DNA from: Candidatus Woesearchaeota archaeon
GTDB taxonomy: Archaea; Nanobdellota; Nanobdellia; Pacearchaeales; GW2011-AR1
Length of the DNA stretch: 64,000 bases
Assembly (NCBI GenBank): GCA_964621025.1
Contig: CAZUKQ010000003.1
Location: 1,991-65,990, forward strand
Direction: 5' to 3'
This document shows positions 18,895 to 61,959 of the stretch, in pieces. The position numbers and the translations under genes were made by a program. The notes below the pieces were generated by a model. It saw only the letters and a program-made list of their open reading frames with translations. It was not told where the DNA came from and searched no databases. The first letter of the stretch is position 1; each line of letters opens with the position of its first letter.

Positions 18895-19713
18895 TTATAA
18901 AAATAACGAAAACAAGAAATTAAAGAAAAAGTCATAAAAATAGGCATACAATAAAAATGCAATCATGAAAGCTGGCACGAAAGGTAAACCTTCCTTAATC
19001 AATACCTCTTTCTTTTTTCTTTTTATTAATTCTATCTCTTTCTTAGACAAACCATCGAAATTAGCCTTGAAAACTCGGTTTCCTATTTTCAAATCACTGA
19101 CCAACCAGTCACCTTCTCTCAAAAGTTCACTTTTAACTTTTCTATACATTGCAACTTTTTCTAAGGCCTTAGCATAAACAAATAACAAGGAAAATGCTAA
19201 AACAAAAATAGCTACTATCAAAAATAAAGAATTAAAGAAACCACCAATAGCAAAAACAAAAGCCAAAAGTAAATTATATTTCAATTTCAGTTTTTTTGAT
19301 TCTTTAACAACTTCTTTTTTCATTTTCTTGAAATGAATTATGCCCAAAATTGCCGTATAAGACAGTCCATAAACAGAACCAGCTAAAAATAAGCAGAAGA
19401 TGAAAAAACCTAGATTGAGAAAAGTTAAATTGAAAGTCGCAGCTACAAAAAAAGGCGTCATTGCAAATAAAAGTTTAGCGTCTCCACCTGCAAAAAATCT
19501 ACAATAATAAAGTATATTTGAAAGAGCAAAGAAAACTAAAATAAAAATAAACACCAAAAAGATTTGCTCCGACGTCTTAGCAGAGAAAATCAAATAAACG
19601 CTTCCGGAAACTAGAAGAAACAAGTTCAACCAGTTATCAACCTCTCTTCGTTTAACATCTTGAGCAAAAGCAATCGCCAAACCTGCAAAAAAAAGCCAAA
19701 AAAGGAAGTTCAT
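18895..19713 (-). CDS. Prepilin/preflagellin peptidase (A24 family; PibD/FlaK/EppA-like)
   Basis: Both catalytic aspartate motifs are present: AQDVKRREVDN (D-x-K/R-x-R-x-I/V-P/D type) and FAGGDAKLL (G-x-G-D-x-K-L). It is polytopic and ends with LPFVPAF. Confidence 0.8.
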   Translation of the reverse strand: MNFLFWLFFAGLAIAFAQDVKRREVDNWLNLFLLVSGSVYLIFSAKTSEQIFLVFIFILVFFALSNILYYCRFFAGGDAKLLFAMTPFFVAATFNLTFLNLGFFIFCLFLAGSVYGLSYTAILGIIHFKKMKKEVVKESKKLKLKYNLLLAFVFAIGGFFNSLFLIVAIFVLAFSLLFVYAKALEKVAMYRKVKSELLREGDWLVSDLKIGNRVFKANFDGLSKKEIELIKRKKKEVLIKEGLPFVPAFMIAFLLYAYFYDFFFNFLFSLFL

Positions 19714-19880: not shown

Positions 19881-22043
19881 TTAACCAAAACCATTTAGGA
19901 CAACTGCGCCCAGTAAACTTAAACCTAAAATCGAAATTGCTGCCACGACAAGATATAATAAAATTCCTGCCTTCAAGTTCTTTCCAGTCTCCGCAGTAGT
20001 CTGTAATTCATCCTTCCCAGATTTAATTGTAACTAAAGTTGAAGTTAAGATAAAGACAATTTCAATAAGATAAAGTCCTACGGCAAGTTGTAACCAATAT
20101 GTTGGCATCATTTTATCTAACTGAAATATTCCTAACAAACTACCCAAACCACCAAAAGTACTAGCTGCACCTTCTCCAAGGGCTCCTGCGCCCATCGAAT
20201 TAGATAAGCCTCCTAAAATTGTTGTAATCATTCCCGCTAAACCTACAATGATTCCTGATAAAAGAGGAGCCAGGAAAACCATATTAGATTTCATATCGGA
20301 AGTAATCTCTGCCAATAAATCATTTAATCTTACGTCGATTTTTTTAATATTTTTTACATATTCTGAAATTGACATCAAACTCTTCGCTGCAACCTGAAGA
20401 CCTTTCTTAACAGATTCAACTAAAATTTTCATTGAAGTTGCAACAAGTTGTGATGGATAAAATATAACTGCACCACGCTTAGAATTAAACAAAGCATTCT
20501 CAACTGACATTCCCATCTGTTGAATATTTTCATTAACAATTTTGAAAAAACCTTCTGTGGCTGTTCCCTTTGTAGACTCAGAAACTTTTGCAAATGCAAT
20601 TTCAGCAGGTAAACCATCGCCCATTCTATTTCCTAACTGGAACAAGGATGATGTAAATTCCTCCTCAACATTTTTGTAATCGGCTCTTGCCTTAATCAAC
20701 AACTTAGTTTTTTCTTTGTAAGCAATTATAAAAAATAAAGCGATACCTAGGGGAACAAGAAGAGAAAGTAATAGCGCTAAAACACCAAATGGACCAACTA
20801 ATCCTCCTGCCTCTGATTCGAAAATTCCGAAAATACCATTGTTACCTAACAAACTAAATCCTAAAGAGGCCCAAGTATAATCTCTCTGTAAACCTAACCA
20901 AAGAGGTAAATTAGTGTATCTAAAGAACATTGGAATCAAACCAATTAAGATTAATGGAAAAGCAATCATCGAAGATTTTACGTAGGGTTTTTTACTTTTG
21001 TAAGTAGGATAAAGAGGATTTCTTTCTAACAAGTTAGTTTCACCATAACCCCCTGGACGAGCCATCATAATTCCTCCAGTAAGATAAATTACCATAAACG
21101 GAATAATCAAATTAAAAAGAACAAACAGATGGTAGGCCTTAATCGCACCACCCAACATTGTTGATGCAAGAGGTAAAATTGCCAAAGCTAAAGTTGGTAA
21201 AACAATTCCCAACATGTAAAGATTTGTCAAAGGAGCTTTTACACTATGTGTATATTTCAACATTTTATCATAAACACCGTCTAGAATTACCTGCAAAGCT
21301 TTTTCTAAAACTAAAACTCTTCTAGAATCTGAAGACTCGTACAAACTACTTTCAATTAAATGAAATGATTCAATAAATTCTATAGAGTAATCTCTCCAGG
21401 TTTCTAAATAAGCATCGACGCTTTCTTTTATTGTCGAATATCTTCCAACCTCAACATCCCAGAAAATTTTTCTGAAATCCATTGCGAGAGGATTGTCCAA
21501 ATGTTCAGCAGCGAATGCAACTGCCTTTTCAAAATTTGATGTGTGCTTCATATAAATTACAATATACAAAATTGCAGGAACCATTTGCGAAGAAGCCATC
21601 AATCTCCATTTCATTGCCATTCTTTCTGGTGCTTTATACGCATAGAAAAATAAAAACATTGAAAACATCACACCTAAAAATAAAAACATCATCGGAAAAC
21701 TACCAGTAAAAAGAAAAATCGCTGCAAATAACATAACTGTCGCAAATATTCCTAACAAAAGTAAGGTCACTGCCAGAACCGCAACTTGGGAAACAGTTAC
21801 ATCTAAATGAGCTATGTCTATTCCTCTCTGAATCTTTGGCTTATCTTTTTCAGAAACTTTCATCATGAAAAGATTTCCTAAAGATTTACACCATCTTTCA
21901 TAACTCGTTGGTTCGTGAACCATACTGTCTTTGAAATCTTTGTAAGACTTAGAGAAACCTTGGCTAGAAGCGTAGGGTTTCATTTGACCCTCAATCTTCG
22001 CACCATACTTTTTCAAAATGTCATCCGTTGTCGGCTTACTCAT
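19881..22043 (-). CDS. FlaJ/TadC-like polytopic membrane platform protein (two T2SS-F-like cytoplasmic domains)
   Basis: 720 aa with ~9 TM segments. Two soluble helical inserts (AFAAEHLDNPLAMDFRKIFWDVEVGRYSTIKESVDAYLE... and GLPAEIAFAKVSESTKGTATEGFFKIVNENIQQMGMSVENAL) fit the GspF/FlaJ pattern. It is adjacent to the prepilin peptidase. An SD-like AAGAGGATGAT precedes the ATG. Confidence 0.6.
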   Translation of the reverse strand: MSKPTTDDILKKYGAKIEGQMKPYASSQGFSKSYKDFKDSMVHEPTSYERWCKSLGNLFMMKVSEKDKPKIQRGIDIAHLDVTVSQVAVLAVTLLLLGIFATVMLFAAIFLFTGSFPMMFLFLGVMFSMFLFFYAYKAPERMAMKWRLMASSQMVPAILYIVIYMKHTSNFEKAVAFAAEHLDNPLAMDFRKIFWDVEVGRYSTIKESVDAYLETWRDYSIEFIESFHLIESSLYESSDSRRVLVLEKALQVILDGVYDKMLKYTHSVKAPLTNLYMLGIVLPTLALAILPLASTMLGGAIKAYHLFVLFNLIIPFMVIYLTGGIMMARPGGYGETNLLERNPLYPTYKSKKPYVKSSMIAFPLILIGLIPMFFRYTNLPLWLGLQRDYTWASLGFSLLGNNGIFGIFESEAGGLVGPFGVLALLLSLLVPLGIALFFIIAYKEKTKLLIKARADYKNVEEEFTSSLFQLGNRMGDGLPAEIAFAKVSESTKGTATEGFFKIVNENIQQMGMSVENALFNSKRGAVIFYPSQLVATSMKILVESVKKGLQVAAKSLMSISEYVKNIKKIDVRLNDLLAEITSDMKSNMVFLAPLLSGIIVGLAGMITTILGGLSNSMGAGALGEGAASTFGGLGSLLGIFQLDKMMPTYWLQLAVGLYLIEIVFILTSTLVTIKSGKDELQTTAETGKNLKAGILLYLVVAAISILGLSLLGAVVLNGFG

Positions 22044-27368: not shown

Positions 27369-27451
27369 GTGGGGGTGCCGGAGCGGTCAAACGGGCTGGA
27401 CTTAAGATCCAGTAGCTTATGCTTACGGGGGTTCGAATCCTCCCTCCCACA
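27369..27451 (+). tRNA. tRNA-Leu (TAA), type II with a long variable arm
   Basis: GTGGGGG acceptor, CTGGA-CTTAAGA-TCCAG anticodon arm, variable arm TAGCTTATGCTTAC, GGGGG-TTCGAAT-CCTCC T-arm, CTCCCAC-A 3' end. Confidence 0.9.
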
Positions 27452-27598
27452 TTTCAGCTAATCGACGAAGGAGATTAGTTAATTGAAGGATTCTAATTGC
27501 TAGTTTCAAATTACAGGGGCGAATTTTTTGCTCAATCAACAAATTAAAAGATAAATAATTGAGTGAAAAGCGAGTAGAAGACGACCTCTGACATTAAG

Positions 27599-27997
27599 TT
27601 AACTAATCAGAGTCATGTTCTTTCGAGGCTGACCTGCCAGATATAAATAAATCTTAGAAAGATTTTCATTAAAGTAATAATTATCTTTTGTACCTTCAAC
27701 CAAAGCCCTACATAAAATTTCACCCTTAACTAATTCTCCTCCAACAACATTAATCTTCAAACTTTCACCAGCTTTAGGAAAATTTTCTTTTGTTACATTT
27801 GATGCAGGTTGACACCAAGATAGGTTCTTGAGACTCTCTTGAAAAGCAACAACATCCTTATTTATTGAACTTTCATCAATTCCTGTTTTCCCTAAAAAAA
27901 AAGCTACTAAAAAAACAACAATAGCCAATGCAATAACTCCTCCGCTAATCCATAAAAGTTTGGAAAAATTTTTAGTCTGATTATCTATTTCAACCAT
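27599..27997 (-). CDS. Small N-terminally anchored membrane protein, 132 aa (paralog of 60680-61114)
   Basis: TM is LLWISGGVIALAIVVFLVAFFL. The ectodomain aligns with the 144-aa paralog (NLSWCQP...KENFPKAGES...EILCRALV...NYYFNENL versus NVSWCPS...KEDFPSVGEN...QMLCKVLV...QYYFSEDM). It overlaps the upstream pilin gene by 1 nt. Confidence 0.65.
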   Translation of the reverse strand: MVEIDNQTKNFSKLLWISGGVIALAIVVFLVAFFLGKTGIDESSINKDVVAFQESLKNLSWCQPASNVTKENFPKAGESLKINVVGGELVKGEILCRALVEGTKDNYYFNENLSKIYLYLAGQPRKNMTLIS

Positions 27998-29262
27998 TAT
28001 ATCTCTCCCTCTTTACCATAAAATGTTCTAGTATAGCTAAACTCTGGATAAGCACAAGCTTCACGTCCAGTCTGCCAACCCGTAAATCTTACCGTATAAT
28101 ACTTATTCTCCTCTGTTAATTTCATACAGTAATCAGTTCCAATAGAGTGAAGAGGGGGAATTGAAACAACATTACCAAAAGAAGAAAAACTAAGTGAAAG
28201 TTGGGAACAGTTTCCGTATGCCCAAAGTGTTTTTTTTGGACTATCGCCCCAATAAGCTGAATAACTTTCATTTAAATAGTTATAAATTGGTCCTCCAGTA
28301 CCTCGAGTAATACAAACAGAAGAAGAAATACAGTCGGAGTTATTATTCGCTGCTGAAGACGAAAAGACAATTTTTTGGCCAGTTAGATTATCAGTACGAT
28401 TGTATGAAAAAGTTGGCCGTATACCACAACTTTTACCGGGCAACCAACTTTCAAAAGCAATATCATAATATTCTTTCTCTTCTGTGAGTTTTAAACAGAA
28501 ATGATTACCAGCAACATTATACCCAAAACCTCCACCAATAGTATTATAAAAAGACTGAAAATTCAACGTCTTCCAATCACTACAAGAACCATAAGCCCAA
28601 AGTGTTTTTTTTGGACTTCCACCCCAATAATAATCTTGAGAACTCTCTTCTAAAGAATTGTATAGAGGACCACCACTGCCCCTAGCAATACAAACAGAAG
28701 GAGAAATACAATCTACATCTTGCGTCCCAGTTAATTTAACAAAATGTACTGCCCGAGCATATTCTTCAGGTGCAGGAGGAACAACTCCTGGAAGTGGAAC
28801 AATAGGTTGAGCTGCTTCAGGAATACTTTCAGATAATTCAAAGACAACTTCTCCAGAAACATTTTTCAGAGAGTTACTAATAACTGGAGCAATTTCTATT
28901 TTATCCGGTTTTCCTTTTGGAGACCTTACATCATAGGTTAATGTTGTTCCTTTTTTTGGTGCAGGAAGAATATATGAATAAGACTGTCCATCTATAACAA
29001 AGTTGATTTGAATATAATCATAGTCTAAGGAATCTTCCGCACCCCTTGTAACTTGAACCTTCGCAAGTTTAGTAATGTTATCATAAACGGTATATCCTCC
29101 AGAAGTCTCAATAGCCAAAGAGACTTTTTCTGCCGTAGCGGAATTTGCAGCATCCTTAATCATTGGAATAACCGTAGACCAAATAATCGCAACAGCTGCA
29201 ACAGTAATCATTATTATCAAAACAGTCGCTACAACTGCATCAACACCTCTTTTTCCGTACAT
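27997..29262 (-). CDS. Archaeal pilin-N-domain protein (421 aa) with a tandemly duplicated ~115-aa Cys-containing domain
   Basis: The N-terminus MYGKRG|VDAVVATVLIIMITVAAVAIIW matches the archaeal type IV pilin N-terminal (Pilin_N/DUF1628-like) pattern. Residues ~172-290 and ~298-412 are internal repeats (DCIS.SVCI.RG.GGP.YN...SPKKTLWAYG.C...C.KLTEE..YY..F..W...FSY.RT). It has its own TATA (AATATTTATATAATC) ~25 nt upstream. Confidence 0.75.
   Translation of the reverse strand: MYGKRGVDAVVATVLIIMITVAAVAIIWSTVIPMIKDAANSATAEKVSLAIETSGGYTVYDNITKLAKVQVTRGAEDSLDYDYIQINFVIDGQSYSYILPAPKKGTTLTYDVRSPKGKPDKIEIAPVISNSLKNVSGEVVFELSESIPEAAQPIVPLPGVVPPAPEEYARAVHFVKLTGTQDVDCISPSVCIARGSGGPLYNSLEESSQDYYWGGSPKKTLWAYGSCSDWKTLNFQSFYNTIGGGFGYNVAGNHFCLKLTEEKEYYDIAFESWLPGKSCGIRPTFSYNRTDNLTGQKIVFSSSAANNNSDCISSSVCITRGTGGPIYNYLNESYSAYWGDSPKKTLWAYGNCSQLSLSFSSFGNVVSIPPLHSIGTDYCMKLTEENKYYTVRFTGWQTGREACAYPEFSYTRTFYGKEGEI
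28027..28749 (-). repeat. Intragenic tandem duplication (units ~28393-28749 and ~28027-28371)
   Basis: The two protein-level repeat units share nucleotide blocks such as gcccaaagtgttttttttggact near 28220 and 28598. Confidence 0.7.
29098..29262 (-). repeat. Conserved pilin 5' coding block, copy A (copy B at 60487-60645)
   Basis: The encoded peptides are nearly identical (GVDAVVATVLIIMITVAAVAIIWSTVIPMIKD...AEKVSL). The nucleotide differences are mostly synonymous and not base-specific. Confidence 0.8.
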
Positions 29263-29327
29263 ACATTACCGAAGATTAAAGATTATATAAATATTGTGGG
29301 AAAGAGAATTTATTAGCAAGAAACCTA

Positions 29328-31202
29328 CTAGTTTCTTACATCTCTATCTCTAATCAACAAAACTAAAACTATAAAGAAAAGAACCAAAACACAAAGTAAA
29401 AGGAATACTAAGAAAAAAGCCCAAGGAGAAGTTTCTCTTGGTTTTTCATTTAAGACCAAGTAATCCAAAGTTTCATTTCCGCCTTGAAGAAGAACATAGC
29501 CTGTTCCAGAAGTTTTAGGAGAATCATCGTTATCATCATCTTCATCACTGGAAACATCTATCTTGAAGTTAACATATTTTGAATCGTTGTTCCCATAATT
29601 ATCTGAACAGAAAACAGTTAGAACATAATTTCCATTTGAAAGGCCATCCTCATCCGCAACAAAATAATTTCCTGAAGTCAAGAAAGTTTTATTCACACCA
29701 TTATTCAAGTTATAATAACAAGAACCTGATTCGTTTAAAGAAACATTCACTTTGATATTTCTAACATCATAAGTTTTATCTATTGGAGAATGAATAGTTA
29801 TAACTGGGGCATTTGTATCATTTATCGAAGACAAATTAACAATAAAATTAACTGAGTTATTTACTGTGTTAGTTCCGTTTGAAACAAAGACCGTTAAATT
29901 GTTAGTTCCATTCACAGCAGAAATTGTTGTATTCGCACATTGAGTTAGAATCACATTCACACCATTAAGAGAATACCAACAAGAAGTTGCGGTTCCGTTT
30001 ATTGTGTAATTCAAGGGAATAACTGAAATATTGTAAGTTATATTTTGTGGACTGATTACATTAACTGATAAATTAGTTAAGTTAGTTTGGTTTGTTTGAT
30101 TATTTGACGTAAAATTCAAAACACTAACTAAAAAATTTCCATTCGCAACATTAGCGGAAGAGTCTGTAGCATTACAATTCACAGTATGATTCCCCACTGC
30201 AAATACACTTCCATTTTGAGGAGAACAAACTAGAGGAACAAATCCATCGACATTATCGCTCGCATTCATATTAAAATAATAAACAACAGCTCCTGAAGAG
30301 TTAGTTGCATTAACTGAAATGTTTCTCAAATTTAAAAATGGAGCAGTTGTATCTGTAATAGAACAAGATTGACTTAAAACAGGACTTCCACCAATACATC
30401 CACTAGGTGAAGAAGAATTAACTGTTCTTGTTTGAGTTCCAGCAATACAAGCTGACCAGGGATTATAAATAAAAGAAGTACATGTTGTTGGAAAGGTATT
30501 GTTAACAATTGTAATTAAAGAGGTCTTATTTTGATTATTTGAACTTAAACATTTAACATCATCAGAAACAGAAACAACTTCAAGAGTATAATTTCCAGAA
30601 TTAAGTGCAATAGTAAATGTTTGTTCAGAATTTCCGGAAAAGGGCAAATTAACAACCTTCGTTTGATTTAAAGAACCATTAACCTTTAGTAATAAAGTAA
30701 CATTCACAGAATATTGCGAAGCAATTTGAGATGGAACAAAATTTAATCCGCCAGCATGATTTATCGGTGCAGCTACATTTGTTTTAACTGTTACGACATT
30801 AGAAACATTTGTTACAATTAGGTTAGTTAACGTAGAAGTACAAACATCTTTTCTTGTTAAATAATCACTAACAGCGTCGACTCTCTTGTCTCCGTTAAGA
30901 TCTTCATAGCCTGTTGAAGTTCTTTCATAAGGAATGTATCCTTCTTTGAAAATAAACAAACCATAATTGGTATTTTGCCCACTGTTTGGATAAGCTATAT
31001 CTAAAAATGAGTTTGAACCTGAATTAGAATTAACAAATTGAACCTGCCCAGAAGAACAGTCTGAATTAGAACAACTGAAGCCTAAAACTCCAACCTGATT
31101 TATTGGTGAATTATTGTAAACAAAGTTATTTACTTGTAATAAATCTGCCGATACGAAAGTTAGAGAAAATAATAAGGCTAAAACAAAAAATAGATTTTTC
31201 AT
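29328..31202 (-). CDS. Sequon-rich surface protein (624 aa) with an HYR-like domain, a TSP1-like motif and a C-terminal TM anchor
   Basis: It has a Sec signal (MKNLFFVLALLFSLTFVSA). The HYR-like segment DTTAPFL...GAVVYYFNMNASDNVDGFVPLVCSPQNGSVFAVGNHTVNCNATDSSANVANGNFLVSV lies at ~30117-30361. It is preceded by WSACIAGTQTRTV...C.GG.......C. An acidic stretch and the TM WAFFLVFLLLCVLVLFFIVLVLLI follow. There are many N-x-S/T sequons. Confidence 0.7.
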   Translation of the reverse strand: MKNLFFVLALLFSLTFVSADLLQVNNFVYNNSPINQVGVLGFSCSNSDCSSGQVQFVNSNSGSNSFLDIAYPNSGQNTNYGLFIFKEGYIPYERTSTGYEDLNGDKRVDAVSDYLTRKDVCTSTLTNLIVTNVSNVVTVKTNVAAPINHAGGLNFVPSQIASQYSVNVTLLLKVNGSLNQTKVVNLPFSGNSEQTFTIALNSGNYTLEVVSVSDDVKCLSSNNQNKTSLITIVNNTFPTTCTSFIYNPWSACIAGTQTRTVNSSSPSGCIGGSPVLSQSCSITDTTAPFLNLRNISVNATNSSGAVVYYFNMNASDNVDGFVPLVCSPQNGSVFAVGNHTVNCNATDSSANVANGNFLVSVLNFTSNNQTNQTNLTNLSVNVISPQNITYNISVIPLNYTINGTATSCWYSLNGVNVILTQCANTTISAVNGTNNLTVFVSNGTNTVNNSVNFIVNLSSINDTNAPVITIHSPIDKTYDVRNIKVNVSLNESGSCYYNLNNGVNKTFLTSGNYFVADEDGLSNGNYVLTVFCSDNYGNNDSKYVNFKIDVSSDEDDDNDDSPKTSGTGYVLLQGGNETLDYLVLNEKPRETSPWAFFLVFLLLCVLVLFFIVLVLLIRDRDVRN

Positions 31203-57965: not shown

Positions 57966-58670
57966 ATGCAAGAAGGAGATTTAGTATTATGTACTGTAAG
58001 AGAAATAGAAAAAACTGTTGTATTCGTAGAACTACCAAATAAGGAAAAAGGTACAATTGTTTTATCAGAAATAGCTTCAGGTAGAATTAGAAACTTGAGA
58101 GAATACGTTGTTCCTAGTAAAAAAATAGTTTGTAAAGTTCTAAGAGTTTCACCAAACCACATTGAGTTATCTTTGAGAAGAGTAAGCTCAAAAGAACAAA
58201 AAGAAGTAATGGACAAATTCAAACAAGAACAAACTTCTATGTCTGCATTAAAATCTATCTTGAAAGAAAATTATGAAACAATAAACGAAGCTATTCTGAA
58301 AGATTATACCTCACTTTTTGAATTCTTAGCAGAAGCAAGAGAAAATGAAAAAGCTCTGACAAAATATATTCCTAAAGAAGCTCAAGACCAAGTAAGAAAA
58401 TTAACCGAAAAGAAAAAGAAATTCGTTGAAGTAAAAAAAATATTAAAAATAAAATGTCTTCAGTCTGATGGAATTAAAAAAATAAAAGAAATGTTATGCA
58501 TAAATGACGAAGAGATAAAAACTGTTTACATCGCTGCAGGAGAATTTCAACTAACTTTCAAAGGTGAAGACTACAAGACTCTTAATAAAAAAGTTCAAAC
58601 AATTCTAGAAGAGATAGAAAAGAAAGCAAAGGCAAATACTTGTGAATTTACCGTCGAGGAAAAGAAGTAA
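57966..58670 (+). CDS. eif2a: Translation initiation factor 2 subunit alpha (aIF2-alpha)
   Basis: The N-terminal S1 domain reads EGDLVLCTVREIEKTVVFVELPNKEKGTIVLSEIASGRIRNLREYV...KVLRVSPNHIELSLRRV. It is followed by nop10, a conserved archaeal gene pair. Confidence 0.85.
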   Translation: MQEGDLVLCTVREIEKTVVFVELPNKEKGTIVLSEIASGRIRNLREYVVPSKKIVCKVLRVSPNHIELSLRRVSSKEQKEVMDKFKQEQTSMSALKSILKENYETINEAILKDYTSLFEFLAEARENEKALTKYIPKEAQDQVRKLTEKKKKFVEVKKILKIKCLQSDGIKKIKEMLCINDEEIKTVYIAAGEFQLTFKGEDYKTLNKKVQTILEEIEKKAKANTCEFTVEEKK

Positions 58671-58671
58671 T

Positions 58672-58821
58672 ATGACTCTACTAAAAAAATGTCAAACCTG
58701 TAAAACCTATACAATTTTTTCTAAATGTAAAAAGTGCAACGAAGAAACAAAAGATGCACACTACAGATATTTTGGTTTAAGAGACGCACCAAAAGATTTC
58801 AAGAGAAAAGAAGATCGATAA
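58672..58821 (+). CDS. nop10: H/ACA RNP protein Nop10, 49 aa (below ORF-track cutoff)
   Basis: Hand translation gives MTLLKKCQTCKTYTIFSKCKKCNEETKDAHYRYFGLRDAPKDFKRKEDR*. It has the C..C..YT....C..C zinc ribbon and the aH..rf tail of Nop10. Confidence 0.8.
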   Translation: MTLLKKCQTCKTYTIFSKCKKCNEETKDAHYRYFGLRDAPKDFKRKEDR

Positions 58822-58833
58822 ACTGAAAGAAAA

Positions 58834-60645
58834 TTATTTCAACTGTGTTCCGGCATTATTCAAAGTATAAAGAGCCAAAACTTCTGTCGAATTCAAACCT
58901 CTGTCCCAAACAGCTAATTCATCTATCGAACCACCATAATAACCATAATAACCTCTTCCGATGTGATCAAAGTATAAATCATAATTATAAGTGGCTGTTC
59001 CGCTAGGTTGCCCATTTAGATAAATGACTACATTATTACTCGTATCTCTAGTTATTGTCCACTGTTGCCAAGTATTTGCAGTAGCCGATCCGGTTGATAA
59101 AAAATACTGAGTGGAGTATCTATAGAAAGAAAGCTTAGCAAGATTGAAGTTTAAATAATGTTCAGAAGAAGAGCCTCTTCCTAGAACACTGTCTGCATTA
59201 TTAATAGTTCCAGTCATATTTGTCCAGAAGGAGATGGTGGAGGGCGCTCCCCAGCCAAGATTGATATTTCTGTTTACATAATCATTAGTTCCATCAAATT
59301 TGTAAGCTTTACCAACCTTACCTGTCTGATTGATAGCGGGATTTGTACTAGTTGCAGCAAAGGTTCCAGTTCTAGAATTTCCAGAGTAATCATATACTGT
59401 TGTTCCACTAGTTTCATTGAATGGGAAGTATAAATATAAACCTGAAGTTAAAATAGGAATTGCACAAAGATGTGTCACAGAATTACAATATTGAGAATCA
59501 CATTGGCTATGAGACCCACAAAAGGTTCCTACAGATTTATTTGCTTTACACTGATAATGGTAACTCTCACAGATATTTGACGAACAGTCACTATCAGAAC
59601 CACAATTGTCATCTACGGCTCCGTTCGAACAAACATTATAATAAGTATCGCAAAAACCAGAAGCACAGGAACTACCTGCACCACAACTAGCTAAACCTGT
59701 TACTCCGGTAGTACACTTACCTGTGTAATCTCTATCGCAGTATAAACCACTCTTACACTGACTAACATCCGAACAGTAAGAATCAACTTCTCCAGAACTA
59801 CAAGTATATGAAGCTCCGCAAATTCCAGAGTCGCAATCACTATTCGAATCACAATAATCCCCAATATTCCCCTCAATACAAAGCGTAGTTCCAGAACAAT
59901 CAAAAGTACAATCATCAATAGCACATCTACCACTTAAACAATCATTATCTGCCAAACAAGAAGCACCCAAGTTTCCAAAAGTACATCTATAACTTTGAAT
60001 GTTCCCAGAATCATAACATTGCCAACCCCTAGACGGACCATCGTTAACAGTACAAAAAGAAGGAGAAGGACAACTAACGGGCACATCATAAACCCAATCC
60101 CCTATATTGCAGTCAACGTAAGTGCTATTACAATTATGATTATTATAGGCTGTTGGAATAACTAACCCTTCTGGTGAAACATCCCCTGGAGTCTTTTCTA
60201 AATCCTGGGCATTATCTGGAAGGGTTAAAACCTCTCCCAAAATTTCTCCTTCGTTTCCATTTTCAAAAATTGGAGAAATAGTCACCTTGATAGGTTTACC
60301 AAAATCCATTAAGAGAATTTTATAGGTAGCTTGGGAATTTATTCCCGGAGCCTCTCTTTCTACAAAATAACTCCTTTGTCCATTAAAGAAAGTAATTTTA
60401 ATTTTTGTAACGTTAACATTGTCTGTTCCCCTTGTCACTTGAACTGTAGCCTGTTCACTTTCTTGATCCCAAGTAGTATACCCTTTACTCGTATCAATAG
60501 TCAAAGAAACTTTTTCCGCAGTAACTGAAGACGCAGAATCTTTAATCATGGGTATAACAGTTGACCAGATAATCGCAACAGCTGCAACAGTTATCATAAT
60601 AATCAAAACCGTTGCTACAACTGCATCTACACCCTTTTTGTTCAT
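58834..60645 (-). CDS. Pilin-N-domain protein fused to a cysteine-rich repeat region and a C-terminal LamG lectin domain (603 aa)
   Basis: The N-terminus is MNKKG|VDAVVATVLIIMITVAAVAIIW. Residues ~171-394 (nt ~59464-60135) carry about 30 Cys, including six C-x3-(S/D)-x-C-x-S-(G/N/Q)-x-(x)-C units (CLADNDCLSGRC, CDSNSDCDSGIC, CSDVSQCKSGLYC, CGAGSSCASGFC, CGSDSDCSSNIC, CGSHSQCDSQYC). Residues ~400-603 run from FDGTNDYV to GGSIDELAVWDRGLNSTEVLALY, which is a LamG domain. Confidence 0.8.
   Translation of the reverse strand: MNKKGVDAVVATVLIIMITVAAVAIIWSTVIPMIKDSASSVTAEKVSLTIDTSKGYTTWDQESEQATVQVTRGTDNVNVTKIKITFFNGQRSYFVEREAPGINSQATYKILLMDFGKPIKVTISPIFENGNEGEILGEVLTLPDNAQDLEKTPGDVSPEGLVIPTAYNNHNCNSTYVDCNIGDWVYDVPVSCPSPSFCTVNDGPSRGWQCYDSGNIQSYRCTFGNLGASCLADNDCLSGRCAIDDCTFDCSGTTLCIEGNIGDYCDSNSDCDSGICGASYTCSSGEVDSYCSDVSQCKSGLYCDRDYTGKCTTGVTGLASCGAGSSCASGFCDTYYNVCSNGAVDDNCGSDSDCSSNICESYHYQCKANKSVGTFCGSHSQCDSQYCNSVTHLCAIPILTSGLYLYFPFNETSGTTVYDYSGNSRTGTFAATSTNPAINQTGKVGKAYKFDGTNDYVNRNINLGWGAPSTISFWTNMTGTINNADSVLGRGSSSEHYLNFNLAKLSFYRYSTQYFLSTGSATANTWQQWTITRDTSNNVVIYLNGQPSGTATYNYDLYFDHIGRGYYGYYGGSIDELAVWDRGLNSTEVLALYTLNNAGTQLK
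60487..60645 (-). repeat. Conserved pilin 5' coding block, copy B (copy A at 29098-29262)
   Basis: See copy A. A third, truncated copy of the first ~13 codons lies at 61076-61114. Confidence 0.8.
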
Positions 60646-60679
60646 GACATTTCTATATATTTATAATTTATAAACCTTC

Positions 60680-61114
60680 TCACAAAACAGGATTTAGTAG
60701 GGTCAAATTCTTTTTGTTTTGTCCATTTTGGTAATAAATCAAAACCATATCTTCACTAAAGTAATACTGTTTCTTAGAATCTATAACTAATACCTTGCAT
60801 AACATCTGTTCGTTGATTTTTTCAGCACCATAAAATCTCACAGTAGAATTTTCACCAACCGAAGGAAAATCTTCTTTCATAGCATTAGTCAATGAAGGAC
60901 ACCAGGAAACATTTTCTAAACCGAGTATTGCAACAGGAGTAGTGGAATTAGCATTAGGAGCCACGTTTACTTTCACATCTTCTTTAATTCCTGAAAAAAA
61001 AGTAAAAGTAAAAATCAGAATAGCAATAACAATAACTCCCCCACTAATCCAAAAAACCCTGGACATTTTAGAATTTGTCGCTACAACTACATCTACACCT
61101 TTTTTATTAAACAT
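60680..61114 (-). CDS. Small membrane protein (paralog of 27599-27997) with a chimeric pilin-leader-like N-terminus
   Basis: MFNKKGVDVVVAT (pilin-leader fragment) is joined to NSKMSRVFWISGGVIVIAILIFTFTFF, the TM of the small-protein family. An internal alternative start MSRVFW lies at ~61066. Confidence 0.55.
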   Translation of the reverse strand: MFNKKGVDVVVATNSKMSRVFWISGGVIVIAILIFTFTFFSGIKEDVKVNVAPNANSTTPVAILGLENVSWCPSLTNAMKEDFPSVGENSTVRFYGAEKINEQMLCKVLVIDSKKQYYFSEDMVLIYYQNGQNKKNLTLLNPVL

Positions 61115-61194
61115 AAATTATCTAGGATTAGAGATTATTTAAATCTTACCAAGACTATCAAAATATTTAAATAACAAAAGTCTTCTTAGAGATT

Positions 61195-61959
61195 ATGAAA
61201 CGTTTACTACTAAAATTTTATTTTGTCCTTTTTCTATTACTCCTATTTACAATCTCACCAGTTTATGCTTCTTCAAACAAAATTGATTATCAAGTAGATT
61301 ATAATAATGATGATGTAGGAACAAAATGGAACGCCTCTAGCAACCCCCAAGTTTTACAAGATCAAGATGACACTACATTTTATGGTTTGTCTGGTGCGGG
61401 AACTATTGAAATGCCTATAAGTTTTATTTTAACAAATATAATTTCTATAGAAATTTCTTGGCACTCCGGACCAAACGGTATTGCACCTTCAAATTATTAT
61501 TTTGGATATTTAAATGAAAAAAATGAATGGGTCTTTCCAAATGAATGGAGCTCATCTGGAAGCTACCAAGAATTTAATACTCTTCATAAGTTTGTTCTAA
61601 CTACGCCTATTGAAACTTCAAAAATAAAATTAGTCCGAGAAGGAACCGGTCCAGGTTCAGGAATTGCCCTTTCGGAGTTATATGTTCTAGATTACAAAAA
61701 TGAAGACACAAATAGCCAAACCGTAGTAAACACAGACTCTAAAGACTCTAGCTCAACAAAAAAATCATCTTCTGAAAAAAAGATTACTCTTGAAAAAAAT
61801 GTCTCGGTAATCTCCTCTATTAAAAATGAAACTTTTATAGAACCCTTAACCCTTTCCTATGAAAACTCTAATCAAACAGACAATTATCTTATTTATCTTG
61901 CAACGATAACAGTTATATTAATTCTTATCTACGCTTTATTAAAAATTTTAAAGAGATAA
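61195..61959 (+). CDS. Secreted protein with a possible galactose-binding-like (discoidin-type) domain and a C-terminal TM
   Basis: It has a signal (FVLFLLLLFTISPVYA|S). The body ends ...IKLVREGTGPGSGIALSELYVLD, which resembles the C-terminal strand of F5/8-C-type domains. A Ser/Lys-rich stalk and the TM YLIYLATITVILILIYALL follow. Confidence 0.4.
   Translation: MKRLLLKFYFVLFLLLLFTISPVYASSNKIDYQVDYNNDDVGTKWNASSNPQVLQDQDDTTFYGLSGAGTIEMPISFILTNIISIEISWHSGPNGIAPSNYYFGYLNEKNEWVFPNEWSSSGSYQEFNTLHKFVLTTPIETSKIKLVREGTGPGSGIALSELYVLDYKNEDTNSQTVVNTDSKDSSSTKKSSSEKKITLEKNVSVISSIKNETFIEPLTLSYENSNQTDNYLIYLATITVILILIYALLKILKR

Follow-up and report, generated by a model that had tools for sequence, protein, structure and literature searches.

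A probable modular type-IV-pilin-like adhesin with a LamG head in a DPANN genome

The gene for a 603-aa protein (58834-60645) probably encodes a modular archaeal type-IV-pilin-like adhesin that works via the filament machinery of the cell. It was identified from the ORF list of the window, i.e., the whole analysed stretch of 64,000 nucleotides, which belongs to a 626 kb DPANN assembly that is 82% complete. All features given with coordinates here are located on the minus strand. The protein consists, in this order, of a class III (prepilin) signal peptide with a hydrophobic helix, an Ig-like pilin domain, a Cys-rich region and a LamG domain, and the fusion of these parts described in a first-pass annotation is real in this ORF. 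Counting this one, the genome encodes at least five paralogs with a common pilin module of ~150 aa and differing heads.

Domain architecture and promoter of the 603-aa gene

The N-terminus of the protein, MNKKG / VDAVVATVLIIMITVAAVAIIW, shows a short basic leader ending in K-K-G, as is characteristic of class III signals, followed by 22 uncharged hydrophobic residues. According to the sequence motif and the AF2 model, the signal peptide (MNKKG, predicted cleavage before V6) and the hydrophobic alpha-1 helix make up residues 1-39 (60529-60645), the helix itself being predicted for residues 3-39/41. Residues 8-35 are almost invariant in an alignment of 17 module family members. In a profile search against the PDB, profile position 7 pairs with residue 1 of the mature Iho670 adhesion filament protein of Ignicoccus hospitalis (PDB 3J1R, 5KYH), whose mature N-terminus VSPVIATLLLILIAVAAAV is in register with VDAVVATVLIIMITVAAVA after K-K-G, at a non-significant E of 0.19-0.73. 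This likeness is limited to the helix, and the globular parts show no sequence kinship.

For the globular pilin domain at residues ~45-140 (60226-60513), AF2 predicts a seven-strand Ig-like beta-sandwich, with a pLDDT of 79 for the N-module overall and of 84-93 per ten-residue block over residues 61-130. The top 50 Foldseek hits of the N-module are generic Ig/FN3 sandwiches, with no solved pilin among them. Pilin_N (PF07790) scores 18.3 bits on the 603-aa protein, below the cut-off of 25.2, and the NCBIfam pilin models TIGR02537 and UpsA are matched below threshold only. The C4 paralog clears the Pilin_N cut-off with 26.7 bits.

The Cys-rich region, delimited by Cys positions and repeat matches, comprises residues 172-394 (59464-60132) and contains all 32 Cys of the protein. 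It is composed of an N-terminal part with 8 Cys and six repeats (residues 230-394). These six repeats had been noticed in the first-pass annotation, the formula of which had to be replaced by the better fitting C-x5-C-x4/5-C-x6-8-C. No match to the region could be found in Pfam, NCBIfam or PDB sequence searches, and the AF2 confidence is <50 (pLDDT) across it. An HMM built from the six repeats matched no other ORF of the genome, and the assumption that the repeat is common to the other Cys-rich proteins of the genome was dropped after this search. The repeat is kept in the orthologs P0002-P0005 and in P0043.

The C-terminal LamG/concanavalin A-like lectin domain (residues ~400-600, 58846-59448) was assigned using PF13385, AF2 and Foldseek. 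PF13385 (Laminin_G_3) matches residues 451-589 with 54.5 bits at a cut-off of 27.6 (E 1.9e-14), and the AF2 model is a jelly-roll with a pLDDT of 59-92 per ten-residue block, mostly >70. By Foldseek the head matches carbohydrate-binding ConA-like domains (E about 1e-9), one example being AbnA domain 4 with a TM of 0.74 on the target. With the full model, Foldseek also gave many matches to clostridial neurotoxin receptor-binding and trans-sialidase lectin domains; at 13-20% identity these were attributed to the common ConA-like jelly roll, and a toxin kinship was rejected. With a predicted pilin module, a linker and a module that is not T4P-specific, the protein fits the definition that Raynaud et al. 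2021 gave for modular type IV pilins.

By comparison of the pilin-type 5′ ends, a TATA-like box (tttataaa) was located at 60667-60674, which is -29..-22 from the ATG of the 603-aa gene. Such a box is present at -30 to -21 in 6/6 pilin-type 5′ ends, in four of them exactly at -29..-22. The archaeal TATA sits about 26 nt ahead of the transcription start, and with this promoter geometry the spacing points to leaderless mRNAs for the pilin-type genes. A sigma-70 promoter scan was disregarded as irrelevant to an archaeon. Two metatranscriptome contigs of 151 nt match the 603-aa gene exactly (59039-59189 and 59244-59394).

Pilin module family, gene conversion and stability of the loci

Of 151 genera sampled in the same GTDB family, 133 have the pilin module, with 1-10 copies per genome in frames of ~65 (mostly at least 140) to ~2500 aa. 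In these relatives, LamG, GLUG, NosD-type beta-helix and F5/8C (discoidin) heads are attached to the module, and the head types are scattered over the N-module tree (15 changes vs. a shuffled mean of 16.1). Stand-alone modules of about 140-190 aa are common in relatives, including a genome of the same genus; a short stand-alone pilin was not found in this 82%-complete assembly. The five paralogs and the varied heads of the relatives bear out the earlier picture, in which adhesive C-termini are exchanged on a single conserved pilin handle, as an evolutionary description of the family. Most likely, new combinations of handle and head arise by recombination at the module boundary over evolutionary time.

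Full-length orthologs of the 603-aa protein are P0002 (68%), P0003 (46%), P0004 (40%) and P0005 (35%). On the contig of P0002, a partial gene of 110 aa is located upstream of the pilin gene. The genes of P0003 and P0004 are syntenic with the 603-aa gene and, just as it does in the window, adjoin Nop10 and eIF2-alpha/NT5C. The N-module of the 603-aa protein clusters with that of its own ortholog P0002 (support 97/98), and the sequence is identical across metagenome runs of 2020, 2023 and 2025. For these reasons, the 603-aa gene looks stably and vertically inherited, like an ordinary adhesin more than a switchable cassette.

The 421-aa paralog (27997-29262; ORF list, profile and pairwise comparison), which belongs to the first of two cassettes described in the window, has the same N-module and, as its head, two copies of an unassigned Cys-containing domain of ~115 aa. 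It is 52% identical to the 603-aa protein over 161 aa (E 6e-40). The near-identical start of ~53 residues with mostly synonymous DNA differences could be verified, as residues 3-55 are identical at 46/53 positions with 20 synonymous and 7 non-synonymous differences. Over residues 3-36, 33/34 positions are identical at 86% nt identity, with 12 synonymous codon differences. Recombination between the two cassettes, which had been read from this likeness, is not supported, given synonymous differences at background level, the gradual fading of identity without a sharp edge and the grouping of the N-module with P0002. Identical codons at conserved residues amount to 64% in the 603/421 pair vs. 57-61% in between-genome orthologs and 76-80% in a truly converted pair. 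Recent gene conversion between the two genes was rejected in view of these codon counts, and their N-terminal likeness is put down to purifying selection without recent exchange.

The N-modules of the unlinked C1 and C4 paralogs have been homogenised by gene conversion. Both genes are 88% identical at the nt level from -30 to +450 and ~25% identical on either side, with a sharp identity edge at the module boundary (~residue 150). Their positional orthologs P0013 and P0011 (synteny confirmed), which come from one sample with syntenic flanks and are presumed to share a genome, have N-modules of 78% identity, compared to 64-69% in orthologous pairs. Furthermore, the tree clusters the C1/C4-type modules by genome (support 100/99 and 96/92). 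The converted part is the N-module, while the heads keep their chromosomal positions between related genomes. This homogenisation of the handle within a genome suggests that selection keeps the copies compatible with one shared machinery.

A search of the genome for further copies with the shared 5′ block resulted in five genes and one fragment. This common block, along with the N-module conversion seen in a related organism as well as in the C1/C4 pair, would be in line with an actively varying adhesin system that swaps heads or export leaders between the two cassettes by ongoing recombination, like in phase or antigenic variation. Such a system, as proposed by the first-pass annotation, is nevertheless highly improbable. 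The contigs of eight metagenomes (2020-2025) contain one fixed arrangement at both cassettes, and no rearrangement joint was seen at either of them, which is a weak negative because contigs drop rare variants. In X6, the one metatranscriptome run, the first cassette is without a contig. No silent promoterless donor cassettes were found, as in each of the five genes and in the fragment an intact ATG, followed by an intact frame, is preceded by a TATA-like box at a distance of 21-30 nt. Neither the background-level synonymous divergence of the 603/421 pair nor the fixed positions of the heads between related genomes fits ongoing exchange, and on incidental inspection a recombinase or inverted repeats were not noticed at the loci. 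Programmed switching of the cassettes is thus unsupported. The family resembles Neisseria pilE/pilS in having several loci with a conserved pilin 5′ part, a differing 3′ part and conversion between copies. In contrast to pilE/pilS, it is the conserved N-module that gets converted here, the heads stay at their loci, all copies are full genes with a promoter, and no population variants were seen in the contigs.

Small membrane proteins and a pilin-derived gene fragment

Each cassette contains a gene for a small membrane protein. The 144-aa single-pass protein (60680-61114), the gene of which has a chimeric 5′ end, and the 132-aa protein (27599-27997) were compared with each other and are, as had been proposed, paralogs (39% identity, E 1e-29). 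In cassette 1, the stop codon of the 421-aa pilin gene and the start codon of the 132-aa gene overlap (TAATG), which suggests that both are translationally coupled. Three true homologs of the 144-aa protein (P0038, P0040 and P0041) were detected by HMMER among 1.8 billion cluster representatives; P0039 and P0042 were rejected as repeat-protein false positives of this search. A word-indexed homolog search recovered the query itself alone, and across 151 family genomes the 144-aa protein is present in its own genome only.

The 144-aa ORF opens with the pilin leader that had been described for it, MFNKKGVDVVVAT being in frame and accompanied by a pilin promoter. Comparison with the C1 and 421-aa genes delimits a pilin-derived fossil at 61076-61150, comprising 13 codons (61076-61114) and the core of a pilin promoter. 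Its coding part agrees with the first codons of the C1 paralog at 36/39 nt. Upstream of the ORF, ~35 nt are homologous to pilin promoters with equal TATA spacing and align with the promoter of the 421-aa gene, the TATA (tttaaata) being located at 61136-61143 (-29..-22 from the ATG). The fossil is the sole fragment of this kind found in a genome search. It is no assembly artefact, as contigs from independent samples (X1 record 1, X4 record 32, X5 record 7) cross both junctions with zero mismatches. The recombination scar suspected in the leader fragment is genuine and has no counterpart in the three other members of the small-protein family, P0038, P0040 and P0041 beginning with unrelated cytoplasmic tails.

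The alleged inversion of gene order between the cassettes could not be upheld. The small gene is located directly downstream of a pilin-type gene in the first cassette and in two relatives, after a Cys-repeat and LamG protein with a gap of 46 nt in L021 and after a beta-helix protein with a gap of 2 nt in L022. For this reason, the second cassette is better explained by the loss of an upstream pilin gene, and the leader on the 144-aa gene is probably the deletion scar of that gene. The lost gene would once have preceded the small gene as in the first cassette and would have lost everything after codon 13. The 144-aa gene would now be driven by the promoter and start codon of the lost pilin.

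Alternatively, the fragment could be a working class III signal, in which case the 144-aa protein would be cleaved by the prepilin peptidase and be routed into the pilus as an additional minor subunit. The in-frame fragment with its intact K-K-G-V-D motif is consistent with this, as are the TATA at -29..-22, from which a leaderless mRNA would begin at the first ATG of the ORF, and the internal ATG at codon 17, which has no Shine-Dalgarno-like sequence upstream. However, the putative cleavage site is followed by merely seven hydrophobic residues and then the polar NSKMSR, and it is set apart from the real transmembrane helix, unlike in all module family members. As the 132-aa paralog and the three homologs also work without such a leader, a role as export signal is improbable, and the deletion scar is preferred. 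None of the RNA runs searched covers the 144-aa gene.

Filament machinery and relation to known systems

A cognate A24 peptidase and a VirB11/T2SSE-type ATPase are both present in the genome. The A24 prepilin (class III signal) peptidase, which presumably does the processing, is encoded at 18895-19713 (PF01478, E 2.5e-8, above cut-off) and shows a weak FlaK match; the ATPase is located on contig C15 (PF00437, 54.8 bits, above cut-off). A platform protein (FlaJ/TadC-type) was searched with PF00482, giving a best E of 0.1 in this 82%-complete genome, and a 720-aa protein with roughly 8 TM beside the peptidase gave no match in profile searches.

In the proposed working, the five-residue leader MNKKG would be cut off by this peptidase. 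The very hydrophobic and almost invariant alpha-1 helix would serve as membrane anchor of the 603-aa protein and, together with the Ig-like domain, may allow its uptake by the single type IV filament machinery of the cell. The disulfide-rich repeats would act as a stiff spacer that keeps the LamG head off the cell, and through this head it could attach to a glycan on the surface of a host or partner. Due to the bulky head, the protein is more likely to be a minor, tip or sparsely inserted subunit than the main building block. The stand-alone modules of relatives could build the filament shaft.

[quoted passage not shown] A comparable arrangement here, with the protein processed by the peptidase and kept outside an extended pilus as a surface lectin held by its alpha-1 helix or a short pseudopilus, is rather unlikely, if still to be reckoned with. 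All class III candidates in the genome have at least 251 aa (one is cut at the contig end), a short major pilin was not found, and the T2SSF platform (PF00482) was not detected, findings which point in this direction but stem from a genome that is just 82% complete. The same holds for weak sub-threshold matches of a paralog to the BasA/BasC and UpsA models and for the scattered T4F genes of DPANN, the filament production of which is unclear, while class III signal-peptide binding proteins are widespread (PMC13705601). On the other hand, the individual residues of the alpha-1 helix are conserved between genera much more strictly than hydrophobicity alone would demand, which fits helix packing in a filament core. 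In addition, stand-alone modules of ~140-190 aa are common in relatives, the same genus included, and adjacency to an ABC transporter is absent. Overall, incorporation into a filament remains the preferred reading.

Among known systems, the 603-aa protein comes closest to the modular pilins of bacteria, for example PilC of Streptococcus sanguinis, in which a class III signal peptide, a pilin module, an Ig-like and a ConA-like lectin module are combined and which binds glycans at the pilus tip (PMC9934059). Modular pilins, S. sanguinis PilB included, are widespread in bacteria according to a survey that covers bacteria and does not mention archaea in its text (PMC8179133). The order of class III signal peptide, pilin module, spacer and ConA-like lectin is the same in PilC and the 603-aa protein. 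Unlike PilC and PilB, the latter has an archaeal pilin module (Pilin_N type helix and Ig-like sandwich) instead of the bacterial alpha-beta pilin fold, a spacer formed by an unclassified 4-Cys repeat, and five paralogs with one near-identical handle. The module is also outside the N-methylation motif family used in the survey (PMC8179133).

In archaea, predicted adhesins or minor pilins have been described in T4P loci (Makarova et al. [quoted passage not shown] Class III proteins with added domains resemble the present family in the shared signal and hydrophobic helix with diverse C-terminal binding parts, and a single machinery has been proposed to serve several of them. Whereas the bindosome-type proteins are solute-binding and encoded beside ABC transporters, the heads found here are of lectin or adhesin type (LamG, GLUG, beta-helix, discoidin), and the module genes stand alone among housekeeping genes. 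Ordered T4F loci are rare in DPANN (PMC13705601), and a study of nanohaloarchaeal (DPANN) genomes noted that pilin annotations were absent from them (PMC9563170).

Lectin-bearing modular pilins are already established in bacteria, and the principle is not new. The module family is typical of this DPANN lineage, and the 4-Cys repeat and the small partner protein are outside any named family. The module-borne LamG heads would be delivered via the type IV filament pathway and not via Sec, the route that is commonly assumed for proteins with LamG. Tentatively, the handle may be near-invariant, partly through conversion between unlinked loci, because all heads are loaded by one minimal machinery, forming a "one handle, many heads" multi-adhesin pilus by which a genome-reduced DPANN episymbiont recognises glycans on host surfaces; the rare 132/144-aa protein, encoded directly beside pilin genes, might then be specialised as their partner, for example in chaperoning or anchoring subunits with bulky heads. 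With lectin and adhesin heads on a recognisable pilin module, the module proteins are direct candidates for host recognition in DPANN, whose host attachment and host choice are largely unknown. If "one handle, many heads" is true, DPANN would gain the pilin repertoire that is missing from the annotations of several studies, and with it a concrete candidate set for host recognition.

Domain architecture of the 603-aa protein and filament machinery

The ORF at 58834-60645 (minus strand) encodes a 603-aa protein in which a pilin N-terminus is fused to Cys-rich repeats and a LamG domain; ORF, Pfam and Cys counts agree with this architecture, which had been noticed in the first-pass annotation. LamG (PF13385) covers residues 451-589 with an E-value of 1.9e-14, above the Pfam cut-off, and the archaeal Pilin_N profile scored below threshold (18.3 bits, cut-off 25.2). 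All 32 Cys are located within residues 172-394, where a C-x5-C-x4/5-C-x6-8-C repeat occurs six times (residues 230-394). This repeat had no match in Pfam or PDB and no second occurrence elsewhere in the genome.

The N-terminus, MNKKG/VDAVVATVLIIMITVAAVAIIW, is a predicted class III (prepilin) signal, in which a short, basic leader closes with K-G and an uncharged hydrophobic stretch directly follows. Residue 1 of the mature adhesion-filament protein Iho670 aligns with position 7 of a profile from 17 N-modules (the pilin part of about 150 aa shared by the family), which, at non-significant E-values, supports the predicted cleavage register. For the N-module alone, AlphaFold2 predicted a helix (3-41) and a seven-stranded Ig-like sandwich (48-127) with a pLDDT of 79; its top 50 Foldseek matches were generic Ig/FN3 domains, with no solved pilins among them. 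In the full-length model, confidence is low for the Cys-rich part (pLDDT below 50) and good for the C-terminal jelly roll, the latter falling among ConA-like carbohydrate-binding domains in Foldseek. A toxin link, raised by many matches to neurotoxin receptor-binding domains, was rejected because these reflect only the common lectin fold. Two exact 151-nt contigs of the LamG-coding part in one metatranscriptome are weak evidence that the gene is expressed.

An A24 prepilin peptidase is encoded at 18895-19713 and a T2SSE/VirB11-type ATPase on contig C15. Using PF00482, no platform protein was found in the assembly (626 kb, 23 contigs, 33% GC, about 82% complete; window at C3:1991-65990). The product of the gene adjoining the peptidase (19881-22043, minus strand) is 720 aa long, has some eight predicted TM segments and no profile match in Pfam or NCBIfam, and may be a very divergent platform of the FlaJ/TadC type.

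In the proposed mechanism, the A24 peptidase would remove MNKKG, and the 603-aa protein would dock through its helix and Ig-like module into the one type IV filament system of the cell. Its disulfide-rich repeats would serve as a spacer, and the LamG head would bind a glycan on a partner cell. The bulky head would favour a position at the tip or as a minor subunit, a placing that rests on the likeness to S. sanguinis PilC (PMC9934059). The main rival, a bindosome-like display of the protein on the cell surface with no long filament involved, is judged a possible but rather doubtful reading.

Small membrane proteins and a pilin leader scar

In cassette 1, the pilin gene is accompanied by a 132-aa gene (27599-27997), and in cassette 2 the 603-aa gene by a 144-aa gene (60680-61114). 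Both products are paralogs, as previously proposed (39% identity, E 1e-29), of a family with a single TM segment and an outer domain of about 90 aa that bears a YYF motif and two conserved Cys. The family is very rare: a search of 1.8 billion cluster representatives added three members to the two of the window. Of these five, four were checked, and every one directly adjoins a pilin-family gene or a head-bearing gene that the contig end truncates at its 5′ side. The start of the small gene overlaps the pilin stop in cassette 1 (TAATG). In two loci of relatives it follows a Cys-repeat and LamG protein after 46 nt (L021:1458-1919) and a beta-helix protein after 2 nt (L022:600-1028), and in cassette 2 and the related locus L016 it lies upstream of the LamG pilin. 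In L016, NNMTLIS-stop is found 107 nt ahead of the start of P0004, an ortholog of the 603-aa protein.

The 144-aa ORF opens with MFNKKGVDVVVAT, and about 35 nt upstream of it align with pilin promoters. Pilin promoter and 13 codons (36 of 39 nt as in the start of the paralog on contig C1) are joined in frame at the point occupied in the 132-aa paralog by a cytoplasmic tail of its own, nine residues long; a pilin-like start is absent from all three other family members. A chimeric assembly is ruled out by contigs from independent samples that span both junctions without mismatch. The earlier reading of this truncated leader as a scar was thus borne out and extends to the promoter. The simplest explanation would be that a pilin gene once located upstream lost its body by deletion, and copy-and-paste of a pilin 5′ block could also have produced it.

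A TATA-like box was found at -30 to -21 in six of six pilin-type 5′ ends, in four of them exactly at -29 to -22 from the ATG; the boxes in the window are located at 60667-60674, 61136-61143 and 29284-29291. By the usual archaeal promoter geometry, this spacing points to leaderless mRNAs in the entire pilin family, including the paralogs on C1, C4 and C7. For this reason, the first ATG of the 144-aa gene is probably used. The internal start, considered before as an objection, is not preceded by a Shine-Dalgarno-like motif. Functional prepilin processing of the chimera is unlikely, since only seven hydrophobic residues follow the putative cleavage site before NSKMSR.

Relation of the two cassettes

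The 603-aa protein and the 421-aa pilin of cassette 1 (27997-29262, minus strand) share 52% identity over 161 residues (BLASTP, E 6e-40). Their nearly identical beginning with mostly synonymous DNA changes was confirmed: 46 of 53 residues are identical at positions 3-55 and 33 of 34 at positions 3-36, yet the latter stretch contains 12 synonymous codon differences (86% nucleotide identity). Recombination between the cassettes, which had been deduced from this likeness, was not upheld. At conserved residues, 64% of the codons are identical, close to the background of orthologs from different genomes (57-61%) and below the converted pair described below (76-80%). Furthermore, along both genes identity declines gradually in an ungapped comparison (86%, 65%, 41%), and the 603-aa N-module clusters with that of the relative P0002 (support 97/98).

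The 603-aa gene is also not a mobile or switching cassette. P0002 (68%), P0003 (46%), P0004 (40%) and P0005 (35%) are orthologs over the full length, and synteny with the window is retained, P0003 adjoining Nop10 and P0004 adjoining eIF2-alpha and NT5C. Both cassettes occur in one arrangement, with zero or one differing base, in contigs from eight runs of four studies (2020-2025). No joints were seen at either cassette in these contigs, a weak negative given that contigs suppress rare variants. Programmed switching, as implied by the variable-adhesin proposal, is therefore highly improbable.

The public runs containing this stretch are freshwater and lake metagenomes. Positions 27400-29400 and 58500-61400 are identical or differ by a single base across the four studies (2020, 2023, 2025), which suggests that this freshwater population is highly clonal and has a wide distribution. 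The window genes are archaeal, and the relatives carry Nanoarchaeota/DPANN labels.

The pilin-module family and its handle

The genome holds five copies of the N-module, in the 603-aa and 421-aa genes and in three paralogs outside the window: C1 (C1:52851-54011, minus strand, 386 aa), C4 (C4:48107-48642, plus strand, cut by the contig end) and the divergent 294-aa paralog on C7. The C4 head is judged to be of the GLUG type by its near-identical relative P0017. Among 151 genomes of the same GTDB family (one per genus), 133 contain the N-module in 1-10 copies, in frames from stand-alone (about 140-190 aa) up to about 2500 aa.

The C1 and C4 genes share 88% nucleotide identity from -30 to +450 and about 25% on either side. 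This block is sharply bounded, lies in front of unrelated 3′ parts, and the two loci are unlinked. In a related organism, the orthologs at the corresponding positions are P0013 (TruB-MCM locus) and P0011 (g166-g126 locus), both from one JGI sample, with flanking genes 66-89% identical to those of the genome studied here. The N-modules of P0013 and P0011 are 78% identical, their first 47 or so mature residues wholly so, whereas N-modules of orthologous pairs are just 64-69% identical. In contrast, the heads track orthology (C1 type 65%; GLUG type 34% over 289 aa). The tree likewise clusters these N-modules by genome (support 100/99 and 96/92). By these comparisons, the pattern is the signature of gene conversion that homogenises the handle of unlinked paralogs (concerted evolution) while the heads stay put.

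Head-like modules were also found on Sec-type surface proteins. Divergent from the 144-aa gene, 61195-61959 (plus strand) encodes a protein of 254 aa that combines a Sec-type signal, a membrane anchor at the C-terminus and a discoidin-like domain, the last being 33-39% identical to both head domains on the pilin module of the relative P0009; one head type is thus coupled to two export and anchoring modes. The anchored HYR-domain protein at 29328-31202 (minus strand) carries at residues 240-282 a 43-aa TSP1-like Cys module with 67% identity (E 4e-17) to one located between pilin module and LamG head in P0006, by its similarity another module common to pilin-type and Sec-type proteins.

In bacteria, modular pilins are well established, with lectin and vWA among the many modules they carry (PMC8179133, PMC9934059). 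Archaeal proteins that combine a class III signal peptide with additional domains have been described as binding proteins and as predicted adhesins or minor pilins (PMC4858521, PMC13705601). In DPANN, type IV filament genes are reported to be scattered and of unclear function (PMC13705601); in the nanohaloarchaeal (DPANN) genomes of another study, no pilins were annotated and LamG proteins were treated as Sec substrates (PMC9563170). In the literature searched, neither the DPANN module family and its Cys repeat nor the small partner protein and the homogenised handle were found described.

In metagenomic relatives, the same N-module carries LamG, GLUG, NosD-type beta-helix or F5/8C discoidin heads. 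Head types changed 15 times on the maximum-likelihood N-module tree (mean of shuffled labels 16.1), so that they cluster no more than shuffled labels do. The proposal of one conserved handle with interchangeable heads thus correctly describes the evolution of the family.
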